From the NCBI GenBank assembly GCA_964639295.1, contig CAZXDT010000001.1:117068-181067 (forward strand): a DNA stretch of 64,000 nt. The letters are read 5' to 3'. This DNA is from an uncultured Candidatus Saccharibacteria bacterium (GTDB lineage: Bacteria; Patescibacteriota; Saccharimonadia; Saccharimonadales; JALRHH01). The translations under genes and the position numbers were made by a program. This document shows positions 21,978 through 43,031 of this stretch, piece by piece. Positions within the stretch are counted from its first letter, which is position 1. The number at the start of each line of letters is the position of its first letter. The notes under the pieces are model-generated. The model had not been told where the DNA came from and did no database searches. It worked only from the letters and a program-made list of their open reading frames with translations.

Positions 21978-22385
21978 ATGGATGATACACAAGTTACCCC
22001 CAATGGCATCAAAGTACTCGTTATAGAGGATGAGCACTTCATTAGCGAGCTGTACACACGTGCGCTCGGCAAGGCCGGTTATGAGAGCAAGGTCGTCGTT
22101 GACGGGGAAGAGGGTCTAAAAGAAGCTCAAACTGATACTTATGACGTTATCCTACTAGATATCATGATTCCAAACCTGACCGGATCAGAAATCCTAAGTC
22201 GCCTCCGCGCGCCAGATGCCAAGCCTATTCGTGCCAAAATCATTATTGCTACTAACCTGGAGCAGGGTGAACAGGGTCGCGCAGCAGTAGAGCAAAAAGC
22301 CGACGGCTACATAGTCAAAGCGGAAATGACCCCACGGCAATTAGTCGAATTCCTCGACCAATTCCACCTCGAAAACCGCAAATAA
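21978..22385 (+). CDS. single-domain response regulator (receiver only)
   Basis: VLVIEDE, DVILLDIMIPNLTG, GYIVKA. No output domain. Confidence 0.85.
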   Translation: MDDTQVTPNGIKVLVIEDEHFISELYTRALGKAGYESKVVVDGEEGLKEAQTDTYDVILLDIMIPNLTGSEILSRLRAPDAKPIRAKIIIATNLEQGEQGRAAVEQKADGYIVKAEMTPRQLVEFLDQFHLENRK

Positions 22386-22387
22386 TT

Positions 22388-22440
22388 TCACTTTTCGTCC
22401 TTTTGGACTCGTCAGTACGACTTACATTCGTATAAGTGAT
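22388..22440 (-). ncRNA. type III hammerhead ribozyme motif (HH1)
   Basis: Minus strand reads TCACTT-A|TACGA-ATGTAAG-TCGTA-CTGACGA-GTCC-AAAA-GGAC-GAA-AAGTGA. Stem III is 6 bp, stem I 5 bp, stem II 4 bp with G10.1/C11.1. Cleavage triplet is UUA. The 3' edge lies 3 nt from the convergent response-regulator stop codon. Confidence 0.82.
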
Positions 22441-22523
22441 ATTACAAGAAGGAGGTGGTGTTTGGCGTGCGTGGGGCACCAGATTCTGCTTTCGCAAGAA
22501 AATGATGCCCCACGCAGAATGAC

Positions 22524-22868
22524 TCAGTTGAACGTGATGTTCAGGTGGCCGGTACGGCGACGAGTGCTGTAGTAGCCCTCGAAGGTACCACCGCGTGCGG
22601 TGATGCCGTTGGCGTGTGCCTGAGTGGGGTAGTTGCCCTTGATGATCCAGCTTTCACCAGAACCGTCTTCAGCAGCAATACCCGTGACCTGGAGAAACTC
22701 CTCCGAGATTGCCGGGTCGCCACGCAGCGCCTCGGAGTGTCCCTTCACACGGAAGAGCTTCACGACGCGCATGCCATCATTGCCGATCATGCCGATCAAC
22801 GAGAGCTGCTGGAACAGGTCGAACTTGTTGTCACCATCGGTGATCACGAACTTCTCTACGGTAGACAC
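22524..22868 (-). CDS. small GC-rich cassette protein (114 aa), unknown function
   Basis: GTG start 6 nt after AAGGAG. G/C-rich third positions contrast with neighbouring genes. The C-terminus GGTFEGYYSTRRRTGHL resembles that of ORF 38972..39415. Confidence 0.6.
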   Translation of the reverse strand: MSTVEKFVITDGDNKFDLFQQLSLIGMIGNDGMRVVKLFRVKGHSEALRGDPAISEEFLQVTGIAAEDGSGESWIIKGNYPTQAHANGITARGGTFEGYYSTRRRTGHLNITFN

Positions 22869-22889
22869 CAGTCTACTCCTTCTTGTAAA

Positions 22890-22921
22890 GTGTCATGGTT
22901 CTAGAGCCAGACCTCTGTTAC
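22890..22921 (-). promoter_or_regulatory. conserved 5' leader motif shared with the 38918-38949 leader
   Basis: Minus strand reads GTAACAGAGGTCTGGCTCT-N4-CCATGACAC. The 19-nt and 9-nt blocks are identical to those in the leader of ORF 38972. Confidence 0.55.
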
Positions 22922-22978
22922 TTAGCCTAAGCCAAATCACTTATCACCAGATAAGAATATCCCTAAGGATTAACAATT

Positions 22979-23007
22979 ATTATAGCAAAATTATGTAGTT
23001 TTGTCAA
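22979..23007 (-). promoter_or_regulatory. consensus sigma-70-type promoter driving the HH1 cassette
   Basis: Minus strand reads TTGACA-N17-TATAAT. Both hexamers are perfect, with a 17-nt spacer. Confidence 0.7.
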
Positions 23008-23258
23008 TGTTGCAGACTCTGGTAATAAGCATATAATTAAGAGTAGCCACGTGGAGACTGGGCAACCTTTCTTTACGGACTTATACAACTTTTGGCAAGC
23101 ATCCTTCGGGCTCTGTGCGCCACATATACAACTCAGCTTCACCTGTAGATACATCACGAACGGTTGATTTATCTCTAGCAGGCAGCTACAACCTATAACC
23201 CGTTCCATCTGAATACCACACCAGATGTCTTTTGTTTTAACTAAAGAATTACCAGGAG

Positions 23259-23510
23259 TTGTATATGACACTTAACCAAGAAATTACTGTAACAGGCTAC
23301 TACTTTACTAAAGGCAAGAGCTTCCCCAGCCGCGTGCAGTTCGGCGAAGACGAACTAACCTTTGCTGAAATCGGACTTCGCTGCCTCGTTAACAAGGGCC
23401 AAGGGTTAATCGAAATATTTACCATGTCTGATGGGCGCGACAACTACACAATTCGCCATGAACGCGCCAATCACCACTGGACACTACTATCTAAGCGGGC
23501 AATGGCGTAA
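23259..23510 (+). CDS. hypothetical protein (83 aa), first gene of the umuD-like/umuC operon
   Basis: AGGAG precedes the ATG. Its stop overlaps the next start (TAATG). Confidence 0.4.
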   Translation: MYMTLNQEITVTGYYFTKGKSFPSRVQFGEDELTFAEIGLRCLVNKGQGLIEIFTMSDGRDNYTIRHERANHHWTLLSKRAMA

Positions 23511-37461: not shown

Positions 37462-37661
37462 TGTGGTTATTCGACTGGTTATTCCCGACGAGTAAACACG
37501 ACCGCAAAATGTGCAAAGATAAGGTTCGCTACGCAAACGAGCCCGCAGCACTCCAAGCTATACGGAATATCAACCCTGAGCGGAGCAAAAACAAGCCAAA
37601 CCGAGCCTACAAATGCCCTATCTGCCGTGGCTATCACTTAACACGTGCGCCCAAACGGTAA
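37461..37661 (+). CDS. small putative zinc-ribbon protein (66 aa)
   Basis: The ATG overlaps the dprA stop. A Cys in KMCKDK plus YKCPICRGYHLT suggest a small zinc-binding motif. Confidence 0.45.
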   Translation: MWLFDWLFPTSKHDRKMCKDKVRYANEPAALQAIRNINPERSKNKPNRAYKCPICRGYHLTRAPKR

Positions 37662-37911
37662 TACAGACTTTTACAGATATAATTCAGTATAAATACTCTT
37701 GCTTAAATAAGCAGATTGTTTTATACTTGATAGGTTTTGTTGACGGTTTGAGAACATTTTTCTCACCTCCAAAATGCACATTTGACAAGTAGATTGAGCC
37801 GCACAAAGCGAGGCATCGGACCATGGGTGGAAATGGTTCGTTTTCTCGCTTTGTGCCACAGAAGAGCACGTCATTACGCATGATACCCGCGAGAGCAAGT
37901 TAGGAGCCGCC

Positions 37912-38214
37912 ATGTACCTTAAGCGACGCGATCGTGTACTCGTATACGGACCGTCGAACGCTCAGTTTGCACTTCTCGGTTTGAACATTGATCAAACCAG
38001 AGCAGAGCAACTGGAGCGTGTGATCAAGCAAAGATTCAGAGCTGAGATCACCAGTGTTTGGGTCAGTCCTGACGTCCCCGGACAGTTCAGTGTCATGATC
38101 AGTGAAGACAAGTCCCGCACACCCTCGAGCCACCTGCTCGAACGCGTGGCCCGCTTCACACAGTACGACATCGGCTGGAACCCCAATAACACCCAAGTTA
38201 TCACCCGACCCTGA
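37912..38214 (+). CDS. small GC-rich cassette protein (100 aa), unknown function
   Basis: AGGAG lies 7 nt upstream of the ATG. G/C-rich codons. The 193-aa antisense ORF 37900..38481 is judged a GC artefact. Confidence 0.55.
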   Translation: MYLKRRDRVLVYGPSNAQFALLGLNIDQTRAEQLERVIKQRFRAEITSVWVSPDVPGQFSVMISEDKSRTPSSHLLERVARFTQYDIGWNPNNTQVITRP

Positions 38215-38223
38215 AAGGCACAC

Positions 38224-38412
38224 ATGCTTCGACCTACGCGAGATGACAACGGTTACCCGGTCTACGAAGGACGACAGTACGTCGACCTGCACATCGCAAT
38301 CCACGGCTTCGACCCGACTCCTACGGCCCACAACACCACGCCCATCCGCTCTACCAGGAACAACAGTTCCAACGCTGGCCTGGTGAGCTGGTTCTTCGGC
38401 TTGTTCCTGTAG
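38224..38412 (+). CDS. small GC-rich cassette protein (62 aa) with a hydrophobic C-terminus
   Basis: Follows the previous ORF by 9 nt. Ends GLVSWFFGLFL. Same composition as the previous ORF. Confidence 0.4.
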   Translation: MLRPTRDDNGYPVYEGRQYVDLHIAIHGFDPTPTAHNTTPIRSTRNNSSNAGLVSWFFGLFL

Positions 38413-38510
38413 GGACACGCTGATTGCCAAGGGGGCGACCAATACCCACACGCTGCGTGTGTTGGTCGCCCTCGGCGCCACTCTTCAAACCCCGCTCTCT
38501 ACTTGTCAAA

Positions 38511-38577
38511 TTCACTATACGAATAGGGGACCACGCGTCCCGAGTCGTACTGATGAGTCGTAAACGACGAAAGTGAA
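38511..38577 (+). ncRNA. type III hammerhead ribozyme motif (HH2)
   Basis: TTCACT-A|TACGA-(ATAGGGGACCACGCGTCCCGAG)-TCGTA-CTGATGA-GTCG-TAAA-CGAC-GAA-AGTGAA. The cleavage site (CUA) lies after 38517. Stem I is capped by an inner GGGAC/GTCCC hairpin. Confidence 0.85.
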
Positions 38578-38591
38578 ACTGCAATCAATTG

Positions 38592-38833
38592 TTGCGTTGA
38601 AGGCTAAAGCCTTCACCACCTTCTTTTCTGTGCCGACAGAAAAGAAGCAAAAGAGGCTCGTGGCGACATCAAAACGAGATTACAAGTATAACCTGGCTAT
38701 TTGCGTATCGACAGAACGCAAGCGGCCCATTTTTTTATTTAGGATCAAAATGGGCATGCTGTCGGTTTGATTCGCAAATAGTCTGAATACTTGTATCTGT
38801 TTTGCTGAGCCACCCAACCACGCCCGGACGGTT
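38592..38833 (+). ncRNA. unclassified structured element, copy A1 (A-type middle domain)
   Basis: TTGCGT, HP1 TGAAGGC-TAAA-GCCTTCA, HP2 CTTCTTTTCTGT-GCCG-ACAGAAAAGAAG, then GAAGCAAAAGA. Internal helices covary with copy A2. The 3' motif is CCACGCCCGGACGGTT. Confidence 0.6.
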
Positions 38834-38861
38834 GAGGGGATTGTTAACAATATGGTATAAT
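38832..38861 (+). promoter_or_regulatory. probable promoter of the HH3 cassette (extended -10)
   Basis: TTGAGG-N18-TGgTATAAT. The -35 overlaps the 3' end of element A1. Confidence 0.55.
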
Positions 38862-38917
38862 ATATCTTAATCTACGGATATTTCCTCATGTATGTGGGGT
38901 GGCTCAACGCACGTTGA

Positions 38918-38949
38918 GTAACAGAGGTCTGGCTCTGATTCCATGACAC
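38918..38949 (+). promoter_or_regulatory. conserved 5' leader motif (paralogue of 22890-22921)
   Basis: GTAACAGAGGTCTGGCTCT-GATT-CCATGACAC. Confidence 0.55.
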
Positions 38950-38971
38950 CTATTAACAAGGAGGTGGACGT

Positions 38972-39415
38972 ATGTCCACTGCACAAGAAAAAATCGTTGT
39001 CCCTAAAAGACTGGAGATCTTCAAAGGTCCAGGGTTCGGTGAACTGAACGGACAACTGACAGACATCAGTCGTTCGGTTGCATTGGATGGGAAGCGATTT
39101 CCGTTCACGTTCCACGTGAGGCCTATTGATGTGCCGGATAAGGACGAGTTCACCCTTGAAGTGCTGCTTAGCGGGCTTGCTTCCGTGCACGGTGATGGCT
39201 ACTCGTACCGGTTTCCTTCATATGCTGAAAAAGAGCGTGAGTGGTACTTCCGCGGTGTTGTAGATAATTACGGAAGTGAGAGCAGTAACGCTGGGCTGTA
39301 CAAGAGCATCATGTTCGGCGGGGCTGATCCAGTGATCATCAAACAGTGCCGTGGTCGCTACGACACGCACAGCCGTAGTGGCTACATTGAGCCGGGAAGC
39401 TGGAAGTTCGAGTGA
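38972..39415 (+). CDS. small GC-rich cassette protein (147 aa), unknown function
   Basis: AAGGAGG lies 7 nt upstream of the ATG. The C-terminus CRGRYDTHSRSGYIEPGSW aligns with FEGYYSTRRRTGHLNITF of ORF 22524..22868. Confidence 0.6.
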   Translation: MSTAQEKIVVPKRLEIFKGPGFGELNGQLTDISRSVALDGKRFPFTFHVRPIDVPDKDEFTLEVLLSGLASVHGDGYSYRFPSYAEKEREWYFRGVVDNYGSESSNAGLYKSIMFGGADPVIIKQCRGRYDTHSRSGYIEPGSWKFE

Positions 39416-39476
39416 CGTGCCGGGAGGCGATGTTGATGCGTTCGCATCGCCTCCCGCAGTCCCTCCTTGTTAATAA

Positions 39477-39529
39477 TCACTTATACAAATGTGTATTTGT
39501 ACTGATGAGACCAAAAGGTCGAAAAGTGA
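39477..39529 (+). ncRNA. type III hammerhead ribozyme motif (HH3)
   Basis: TCACTT-A|TACAAAT-GTGT-ATTTGTA-CTGATGA-GACC-AAAA-GGTC-GAA-AAGTGA. Cleavage (UUA) occurs after 39483. Confidence 0.85.
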
Positions 39530-42361: not shown

Positions 42362-42378
42362 TTACTTCTTACAGATCA

Positions 42379-42406
42379 TTGCTTATACTCATAAAAATGA
42401 TATAAT
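42379..42406 (+). promoter_or_regulatory. possible promoter of the HH4 cassette
   Basis: TTGCTT-N16-TATAAT. The GATATAATT context resembles 37676-37684 upstream of the HH2 cassette. Confidence 0.4.
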
Positions 42407-42554
42407 TATCACGTTTTGTTGATGCCCGTAAAGCGTCCAAACGTTATTTGACAAGTAGACAAGAAAGAAATGACAGAAGAGTCTAGCTTACTAGGTTGTT
42501 CTGTCATTTCTTCAAGAGAACACCCAACCCCTCCCAGTTAGGAAGCGTGAGTAC

Positions 42555-42890
42555 ATGAAGCACCGCATGACCGAGGTTGAAAAGAAAGTTGCTGATCTGG
42601 AATACCGGACCAGTATTACCTTCGACGAAGAGCAGAACGTATGGCGCCTTACCTGTGAGTCCGTCGATATCTCGACCCCCTCACATCCGAAAACGGGCAG
42701 AGTACCTCCCGAAGTCTTGTGTGACTTCAGAGAAGCTGTCGCCAAGACATACCGAGGACGTCTGCTTCGAGGACAGGTCATCACCGCCATAAGCCGCCGC
42801 TATGAAGAGGCCATCACGAAGTACAAACCCTTCATCAGACGACAAACCATGTTCGACGAGATGCGAGCGGTCGCTGGTCAGATCAGTTGA
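42555..42890 (+). CDS. small GC-rich cassette protein (111 aa), unknown function
   Basis: GGAAG precedes the ATG. The composition contrasts with flanking topA. Confidence 0.55.
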   Translation: MKHRMTEVEKKVADLEYRTSITFDEEQNVWRLTCESVDISTPSHPKTGRVPPEVLCDFREAVAKTYRGRLLRGQVITAISRRYEEAITKYKPFIRRQTMFDEMRAVAGQIS

Positions 42891-42974
42891 TCACGTAGAC
42901 GGGGGTGGGTGTGCACTCGAGTTGCTGCCTCTGGCCGCACTCCTGCGCATTCTCGCCCCCGTCTACTTGTCATA

Positions 42975-43031
42975 TCTTTACTATACGAATGCGTATTTGT
43001 ACTGATGAGATCAAAAGATCGAAAGTAAAGA
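42975..43031 (+). ncRNA. type III hammerhead ribozyme motif (HH4)
   Basis: TCTTTACT-A|TACGAAT-GCGT-ATTTGTA-CTGATGA-GATC-AAAA-GATC-GAA-AGTAAAGA. Stem III is 8 bp. Cleavage (CUA) occurs after 42983. Confidence 0.85.

Follow-up and report, generated by a model that had tools for sequence, protein, structure and literature searches.

A paralogous pair of small-protein genes on a Saccharibacteria chromosome with a covarying putative leader pseudoknot, a Shine-Dalgarno region complementary to the 3' untranslated region and a terminal hammerhead motif

Results

Overview of the two units

The window analysed is a stretch of 64,000 nucleotides (nt) from an uncultured Candidatus Saccharibacteria bacterium (assembly GCA_964639295.1, contig CAZXDT010000001.1, positions 117,068 to 181,067), and it carries two homologous small-protein genes, designated unit 1 (minus strand) and unit 3 (plus strand) and together referred to as class A. 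The two loci probably represent a paralogous, conserved chromosomal gene whose messenger RNA (mRNA) would be built to be long-lived and translationally masked. The units share the helices of a leader of about 105 nt, a long-distance pairing between the Shine-Dalgarno (SD) region and the 3' untranslated region (UTR), and the core motifs of a type III hammerhead. The whole system is small (about 0.6 kb) and self-contained. To judge from the literature searched, the combination of a folded pseudoknot leader, a ribosome-binding site (RBS) paired with the 3' end and a terminal hammerhead has not been described as a unit. A preliminary description of the same DNA, in which the units were called HH1 and HH3, had listed their promoters, a shared leader block and a shared protein C-terminus; these sequence features were borne out, but the pairing between SD and 3' UTR, the hairpin at the start codon and the conserved synteny had been missed.

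In the proposed mechanism, a near-consensus sigma-70-type promoter would start the transcript a few nt before the first leader hairpin (P0), and the leader would fold into three hairpins and then a compact H-type pseudoknot; the SD would come 1-3 nt further on, together with a hairpin in which the start codon is placed at the loop. Beyond the ORF and a G+C-rich hairpin, an anti-SD segment in the 3' UTR would pair with the SD and the preceding 8-10 nt and so close the mRNA on itself, and the abutting type III hammerhead would cut the transcript and give it a 3' end instead of a terminator. The nascent RNA would be translatable until the 3' arm is transcribed, and the finished RNA would be silent until opened. 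The most likely site of effector action would be the pseudoknot against the closing helix. Such an effector, if it exists, would more probably be a protein, possibly the product of the gene itself, than a small ligand, because the helices are conserved while unpaired positions vary and because, in the sequence examined, the pseudoknot occurs only with this protein family.

Pairing of the Shine-Dalgarno region with the 3' UTR

The comparison includes ten further metagenomic loci with a class-A leader: L001 (identical to L003), L002, L004, L007, L008, L009, L015, L016, L018, and L019. They were taken from contigs encoding members of the protein family and from one metagenome motif scan. Two more family members, L014 and L017, have other leaders.

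In unit 1, the 5' arm UUACAAGAAGGAG, which includes the SD, lies at 22876..22888 (minus strand), and the 3' arm CUCCUUCUUGUAA, representing the anti-SD, at 22442..22454 (minus strand). In the minimum-free-energy (MFE) fold, 12 of the 13 pairs are formed, with a mean pair probability of 0.92. The corresponding arms of unit 3 are UAUUAACAAGGAGG at 38951..38964 (plus strand), again with the SD included, and the anti-SD CCUCCUUGUUAAUA at 39462..39475 (plus strand), with 13 of 14 pairs in the MFE fold and a probability of 0.95. Both 3' arms were recognized in duplex and whole-mRNA folds. Every locus with both ends available has a 3'-UTR segment complementary to the SD and to the 8-10 nt upstream of it; this segment sits 0-3 nt before hammerhead stem III, and the SD lies 1-3 nt past the pseudoknot. 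The helix consists of 12-14 contiguous pairs in most loci, with a conserved UUAACAAG/CUUGUUAA core.

Duplex energies range from -19 to -32 kcal/mol, with z values of -3.2 to -5.8 against shuffled 3' segments. Cognate arms average -25.4 kcal/mol and non-cognate arms -19.7 kcal/mol, so that cognate duplexes are more stable by 5.7 kcal/mol. Processed mRNAs of 520-616 nt, running from the inferred start up to the predicted cleavage site, were also modelled, and all 12 had the helix in their MFE fold, with mean pair probabilities of 0.87-0.99. An SD-complementary segment of the kind known from the icaR mRNA is kept among the relatives, and the two arms of the pairing co-vary. According to these folds, the 3' UTR would mask the SD from translation. 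Folding of the unit 1 leader by itself leaves the SD unpaired, and therefore the nascent RNA should stay open to translation until synthesis of the 3' arm.

The leader and its 19-nt block

The 19-mer GTAACAGAGGTCTGGCTCT is located at 22903-22921 (minus strand) and 38918-38936 (plus strand), and in both places it is followed by four variable nt and CCATGACAC, as the preliminary description had reported. No third copy was found in the window, even when 3 mismatches were allowed, and none of 100 shuffles matched. The same description had considered that the block might prove to be a generic repeat scattered through coding and non-coding DNA; this does not hold, as there are two copies in the window and 0 in the scans run of GTDB representatives, phages, and plasmids. 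Both leaders start with TTAATC..GGATATT, and a covarying hairpin stands directly 5' of the block in each, again in agreement with that account. The block was also called invariant. It is identical in the two units of the window, but altered in L008, L009, L018, and L019, where the changes are compensatory.

All leaders follow a common plan of promoter, P0, hairpins P1 and P2 with short conserved linkers, the block, UUAACAAG with the SD, and a 6-bp start-codon hairpin. In unit 1 (all minus strand), P0 (AUCC-UUAG-GGAU) lies at 22959..22970, 2-4 nt from the inferred 5' end, and was recognized by fold and alignment; P1 (CUUAUC-UGGU-GAUAAG) at 22940..22955 and P2 (UUUGGC-UUAG-GCUAAG) at 22921..22936, the latter being the covarying hairpin mentioned above, are supported by the alignment. 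The alignment likewise places the core of the pseudoknot at 22892..22916, with S1 (AGAG/CUCU) interleaved with S2 (GUCUGG/CCA(U)GAC) and a 4-nt variable loop. The start-codon hairpin (GUAGAC-UGGU-GUCUAC), found by fold and alignment at 22861..22876, has the GUG codon (22868-22866) at the border of loop and stem, and its 3' arm represents codons 2-3. In unit 3 (plus strand), P0 (38870-38879), P1 (38884-38899), and P2 (38903-38918) occupy 38870..38918 according to fold and alignment, and the aligned pseudoknot core at 38923..38947 pairs 38923-26 with 38933-36 in S1 and 38927-32 with 38941-47 in S2. Its start-codon hairpin (GUGGAC-GUAU-GUCCAC), also supported by fold and alignment, lies at 38964..38979, with AUG at 38972-38974.

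Aligning the leaders, which had been proposed in the preliminary description, revealed one structure shared by 12 leaders through compensatory changes. In this model-fitted alignment of 12 leaders, some of them closely related, 92.9% of cells are standard pairs, a share that drops to 33-46% if the 3' partners are displaced by 1-3 columns; of the 33 pairs, 21 vary on both sides, and 0 of 500 shuffles reach the observed percent paired or covariation score. Pairs varying on both sides number 4 of 5 in P0 and 6 of 6 in P2. P1 is 100% paired, with compensatory changes at 3 pairs, and the start-codon hairpin is 90% paired, with 4 compensatory pairs. S1 and S2 are 97.9% and 98.6% paired, respectively, each with 2 pairs varying on both sides (L008, L009, L018, and L019). 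Variants of S1 are ACGG/CCGU in L018 and AGGG/(A)CCU in L019, while S2 (GUCUGG/CCA-u-GAC) has C-G at 66-84 in L008 and C-G at 68-81 in L009 and L018. Only the 4-nt loop and one bulge of the pseudoknot are variable, its helices being conserved. The two interleaved helices, kept through about five compensatory changes, lend support at the RNA level to the earlier suggestion that the block is a cis-regulatory RNA or a protein-binding site. The block would form either the core of an H-type pseudoknot or two alternative, mutually exclusive hairpins, as the covariation fits both.

A covariance model built from ten leaders recognized both window copies and the ten loci at E values between 1e-19 and 1e-28, and no other site in about 100 kb of sequence. 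In Rfam 15, no family matched the 110-nt leader even at E values up to 10, and there was no match to a riboswitch aptamer. On the basis of its covariation, the pseudoknot of the leader would represent a new RNA motif absent from Rfam.

Another pairing was observed in the leaders of L007, L008, L009, and L016, where the 5' pseudoknot strand AGGUCUG is complementary to UGGACCU before the GUG start (e.g., L016 1448-1500). It was chosen in the leader-only MFE folds of L008, L009, and L016, which were the three folded, and the GGCC/GGGCC change of L008 matches it. Units 1 and 3 and L015 do not conserve this pairing, which may be an alternative conformation.

Two other roles considered for the block were rejected. 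An upstream open reading frame (ORF) starting from the ATG in CCATGAC, which would open the SD helix by translational coupling, is ruled out, as L008 has no ATG and the bases of the ATG belong to S2. The use of AACAGAGG as a decoy SD capturing the 3' anti-SD is ruled out by L018, in which the S1 changes are compensated inside the pseudoknot and not in the anti-SD.

Hammerhead motifs and the 3' end

Type III hammerheads were predicted in unit 1 at 22388..22439 (minus strand; RF00008, 25.1 bits, E value 0.007), with predicted cleavage after A22433, and in unit 3 at 39477..39529 (plus strand; 22.7 bits, E value 0.23), with predicted cleavage after A39483. These scores, like those of 24-44 bits in relatives (overall 22.7-43.7), are below the gathering threshold of 48.5 bits, and the short loops of stems I and II probably lower them. 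The cores are CTGACGAG...CGAAA at 22393-22415 (minus strand) and CTGATGAG...CGAAA at 39502-39524 (plus strand), and the conserved core C3-U4-G5-A6-N7-G8-A9 ... G12-A13-A14, three stems, and an open stem III are all present. The window contains 4 type III cores, two in class A and two in the class-B units described below, where 0.18 would be expected. Three of the four sequences tested (unit 3, L016, and L019) fold into the three-stem junction; the MFE fold of unit 1 splits stem I, and its canonical fold is possible. Cleavage in vivo by the class-A hammerheads would be expected from these core motifs. A G+C-rich hairpin stands in each 3' UTR, recognized by sequence and fold at 22468..22516 (minus strand) in unit 1, after the stop codon and without a U tract, and at 39420..39456 (plus strand) in unit 3.

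The ribozyme most likely makes the 3' end of the mRNA. The main argument for this is that the hammerhead is interchangeable with a terminator: L004 keeps the leader and the anti-SD with an intrinsic terminator in the place of the hammerhead, and the distant member L017 ends in an intrinsic terminator. In unit 1, 3 nt separate the end of the hammerhead from the stop codon of the response-regulator gene, which runs convergently, and therefore cleavage would also detach antisense read-through. A coupling between pseudoknot and hammerhead is ruled out, as L004 has the pseudoknot without the hammerhead and L014 the hammerhead without the pseudoknot.

Some hammerhead regions deviate from the common form. 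L002 (about 812-820) and L009 (about 866-874) have CCGAnGAG cores with U4 changed to C, in L015 (about 1915-2045) approximately 95 nt are apparently inserted between CUGAU and stem II, which interrupts the core, and no recognisable hammerhead follows the anti-SD of L018 (about 1935-2000). The region of the first hammerhead (22365-22444, minus strand) has a weak similarity to Rfam RAGATH-12 (14.5 bits, E value 4.7), which starts with a similar CACUUAUA; this is probably noise.

Protein family

Unit 1 encodes a 114-amino-acid (aa) protein (22524..22868, minus strand), assigned by family searches to an unannotated small-protein family, and the ORF of unit 3 (38972..39415, plus strand) codes for 147 aa and was identified by profile comparison as a divergent paralogue with two insertions. 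No significant match between the two was obtained in BLASTP. A word-indexed search returned only two relatives for the 114-aa protein and none for the 147-aa protein, and an exhaustive profile search identified 110 representative clusters at E values up to 0.001, mostly of 100-125 aa. Aligned to a profile of 32 family sequences in hhalign, the 147-aa protein matched from end to end (probability 97.6%, E value 3.2e-12), and the family hidden Markov model (HMM) picked only the ORFs of the two units in the window (E value 1.3e-9). AF2 models with a predicted local distance difference test (pLDDT) score of 85.6 for the 114-aa and 74.9 for the 147-aa protein have the same order of elements, strand-helix-five strands, with two insertions in the longer one.

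The preliminary description had the proteins differing over most of their length and sharing a C-terminus, and had suggested comparing them by profile and predicted structure. The reported C-terminal pattern G-x-Y-x-T-x-x-R-x-G was confirmed and ranks as the best-conserved motif across the family, but the homology spans the whole length, and the case in which no relationship could be detected does not apply. The paralogy of the units is confirmed at the protein level by hhalign and HMM and at the RNA level by one covariance model that finds both leaders. Motifs of the family are I-x-DG-x-NKF-x-LF-x-QL, INGI-x-AEDGSG-xx-WII-x-G, and F-x-G-x-YNTRTR-x-G.

Both proteins are soluble and beta-rich, without a hydrophobic stretch, and the net charge of the 114-aa protein, counted on the translated sequence, is approximately neutral. 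In Pfam-A, 31 of the 32 family members had no match and one had a weak, sub-significant match to DUF4903 (E value 0.0073). There was no match for the two window proteins in PHROGs and no sequence match for the family in a PDB profile search, and the best template modelling (TM) score in Foldseek against PDB and BFVD was 0.41, with nothing at an E value of 0.001 or better. The profile and model comparisons indicate two true, old paralogues of what appears to be a new family without detectable fold relatives.

Promoters, chromosomal setting, and inheritance

The promoters claimed in the preliminary description were both found. Unit 1 has TTGACA-17-TATAAT at 22979..23007 (minus strand), with 12 of 12 consensus matches, and unit 3 has TTGAGG-18-TATAAT at 38832..38861 (plus strand), recognized by sequence; TG precedes the -10 box in each, and all related loci have a near-consensus promoter at the equivalent position. 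In both window units the promoter is of sigma-70 type and looks strong and constitutive. The transcription start of unit 1 would be at about 22972, as judged from the position of the -10 box only, and the starts of all modelled mRNAs are likewise inferred.

Pfam domains in the window include DprA, topoisomerase I, a DUF3048 protein, a histidine kinase, a response regulator, UmuD, UmuC, and peptidyl-tRNA hydrolase. The window is bacterial chromosome and not phage, because these are housekeeping chromosomal genes and there were 0 megablast matches in the phage collection; a phage origin is thereby ruled out. Unit 3 is placed between dprA and topA. Unit 1 is flanked on one side by a DUF3048/histidine kinase/response regulator operon and on the other by one comprising an 83-aa ORF, umuD, and umuC. 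The surroundings of the class-A gene show no metabolic context.

Parts of the arrangement around unit 1 (DUF3048/histidine kinase/response regulator; umuDC) were found beside the gene in L001, L008, L014, L015, L018, and L019, and identity to the unit 1 protein falls to about 30-45% among syntenic relatives. Because synteny is kept despite this low identity, and because tblastn found no match for the protein in plasmid and phage collections, the unit 1-type gene is, by this comparison, a vertically inherited chromosomal gene and not a mobile repeat; unit 3 is its diverged second copy. The term cassette used in the preliminary description is misleading for the unit 1-type gene, which has a conserved chromosomal position. 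No match to the block was found in the plasmid and phage collections. In GTDB representative genomes, the motif scan gave 0 matches and a scan for the protein pattern gave 58 pattern matches and no homologue. Four motif matches in viral contigs were rejected as chance hairpins without the second half of the block.

Two features of the neighbourhood were also recorded. The intergenic region of about 250 bp between the unit 1 promoter and the divergent operon of the 83-aa ORF, umuD, and umuC (23008-23260) is 96% identical to L001 9595-9861, while adjoining ORF products of the window and L001 are only 89% identical; it may be a regulatory region or a noncoding RNA of an SOS-type operon. A small ORF of 83-88 aa stands beside the unit in the window (23259-23510, plus strand), L001 (9351-9602), L008 (2108-2359), and L018 (308-574). 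It is directly upstream of umuD in the window and L001, and in none of the four loci did it match a Pfam family.

Class-B units

Two further hammerhead units, designated class B, are located at about 37660-38570 and about 42365-43030 (both plus strand). They have their own shared leader (GTTTTGTTGAYG..., ATTTGACAAGTAGA) and a 3' segment TCTACTTGTCA(AAT) directly before a type III hammerhead, with cores at 38550-38572 and 43002-43024. Their 5' and 3' ends pair perfectly over 12-14 bp, and the SD is outside this helix. The cargo ORFs (37912-38214, 38224-38412, and 42555-42890) are unrelated to the class-A family, and those at 37912-38214 and 42555-42890, when compared, are mutually unrelated.

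Discussion

Weighing of the proposed mechanism

Several observations weigh against a stored, self-closing mRNA with a ribozyme-made end. The hammerhead cores of several relatives look impaired, which may mean that some lineages are losing the ribozyme or do not need it. The pairing counts come from an alignment fitted to the model, a procedure biased towards the structure; a plain, unfitted MAFFT alignment of the leaders is still 90.6% paired. With linkers L1 and L2 of zero length the pseudoknot is sterically tight, and S1 and S2 could be alternative hairpins. L014 combines the protein with the long-distance pairing and the hammerhead but lacks the pseudoknot, so that at least one lineage can do without it. 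Nothing obvious marks the protein as RNA-binding, and Foldseek gave no fold match.

A narrower version of the same mechanism, an autoregulatory leader in which the gene product would bind the pseudoknot in its own transcript and set the degree to which the closed mRNA opens, can be entertained tentatively. Ribosomal-protein leaders and the T4 gene 32 pseudoknot are analogues of such control. In the sequence examined, the pseudoknot occurs only upstream of this protein family, and the class-B hammerhead units, whose cargo differs, have another leader; conserved helices with a varying loop and bulge would fit recognition by a protein, and the most conserved family motif, YNTRTRxG, is basic. On the other side, the family members L014 and L017 have no pseudoknot, the net charge of the protein is near neutral, and neither the PDB profile search nor Foldseek revealed similarity to known RNA-binding folds. 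That the pseudoknot is instead the aptamer of an orphan riboswitch, with a small molecule shifting the stability of the adjacent SD/anti-SD helix, seems unlikely. The position of a compact and almost invariant H-type pseudoknot immediately before the RBS recalls preQ1-I and SAM-II, and a promoter that looks strong and constitutive would leave control to a step after transcription; against this, there is no Rfam riboswitch match, the only unpaired positions (4-nt loop and bulge) are variable with no conserved pocket apparent, and the gene lacks a metabolic context.

Slightly less likely again is a module resembling a type I toxin, in which the mRNA of a harmful protein would be stored inert by fold-back and activated once its 3' end is trimmed or an antisense RNA is lost. 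Sequestration of the SD by 5'-3' pairing, a precisely defined 3' end, a strong promoter, and more than one copy in the genome are features that such a module would share. The protein, however, has 100-150 aa, is soluble, and has no hydrophobic stretch; no convincing antisense promoter was recognized, opposite-strand matches being only 9/12, which is chance level. The HH1-type gene is syntenic at 30-50% protein identity, which fits vertical inheritance over an addiction module, and the protein is absent from plasmid and phage collections. It is very improbable that the block acts at the DNA level, as an operator or recombination site, or as the terminus of a mobile cassette or repeat. Two identical 19-mers 16 kb apart beside diverged coding sequence, and hammerhead units between housekeeping genes, could give that impression, but the substitutions in the block compensate one another within RNA helices of a single strand, the block is neither palindromic nor flanked by repeats, and synteny is conserved. 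The plasmid, phage, and GTDB representative scans gave 0 matches, and the matches in viral contigs are due to chance.

The class-B units raise a broader idea, which is possible though rather doubtful, that the lineage uses a general modular mRNA platform with a strong promoter, 5'-3' self-closing, a hammerhead 3' end, and varied small-protein cargoes, in which the class-A pseudoknot would be the release switch. If true, chromosomal bacterial hammerheads would have a concrete role, with 3'-end formation coupled to the storage of silent mRNA. To our knowledge, the role of most bacterial hammerheads is unclear and few bacterial 5'-3' UTR pairings are known. The position of the class-A hammerhead, where relatives have a terminator and abutting a conserved anti-SD, gives it a testable role in 3'-end formation, and the 5'-3' pairing of class A has comparative support from 12 loci, together with the putative new leader pseudoknot and protein family.

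Comparison with known systems

The class-A ribozyme resembles the hammerheads of RF00008 in its CUGANGAG core, stem II hairpin of 3-4 bp, CGAAA, open stem III, and UH cleavage site, but it scores below the threshold and is located directly after a 3'-UTR anti-SD, in the position of a terminator. In the literature searched, no natural hammerhead coupled to an anti-SD element or to 3'-end formation in this arrangement was found.

Small pseudoknots immediately 5' of the RBS are known from the preQ1-I and SAM-II riboswitches and from the protein-binding pseudoknots of T4 gene 32 and Escherichia coli rpsO, and in these the SD or the start codon is within or overlaps the pseudoknot. The class-A pseudoknot has the same position, but it is separate from the SD, which is masked by the 3' UTR, and its loops are not conserved.

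The mRNAs of hok (fbi/tac) and aapA1 are kept inert by pairing of their 5' and 3' ends, and a defined 3' end matters there; they encode hydrophobic peptides of fewer than 60 aa, with an antisense RNA as antitoxin, and their 3' end arises from a terminator and exonuclease trimming. In the folding models, class-A transcripts would have a comparable fold-back, but their proteins of 114 and 147 aa are soluble and not small hydrophobic toxins, and their 3' end is assigned to a ribozyme instead of a terminator with trimming.

In the icaR mRNA of Staphylococcus aureus, an anti-SD in the 3' UTR pairs with the SD region of the same mRNA and controls its translation (PMC3868564). In class A, too, the SD region and a 3'-UTR anti-SD of one mRNA pair, and icaR is the closest functional analogue. 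The 3' end of icaR comes from a terminator and its duplex is processed by RNase III, whereas the class-A anti-SD abuts a hammerhead, and a pseudoknot leader stands against a helix that in most loci has 12-14 bp, with a conserved UUAACAAG/CUUGUUAA core. None of icaR, hok, and aapA1 is known to have a 3' end set by a ribozyme or a separate pseudoknot leader. As analogues, the fold-back of hok and aapA1 would rank next after icaR.

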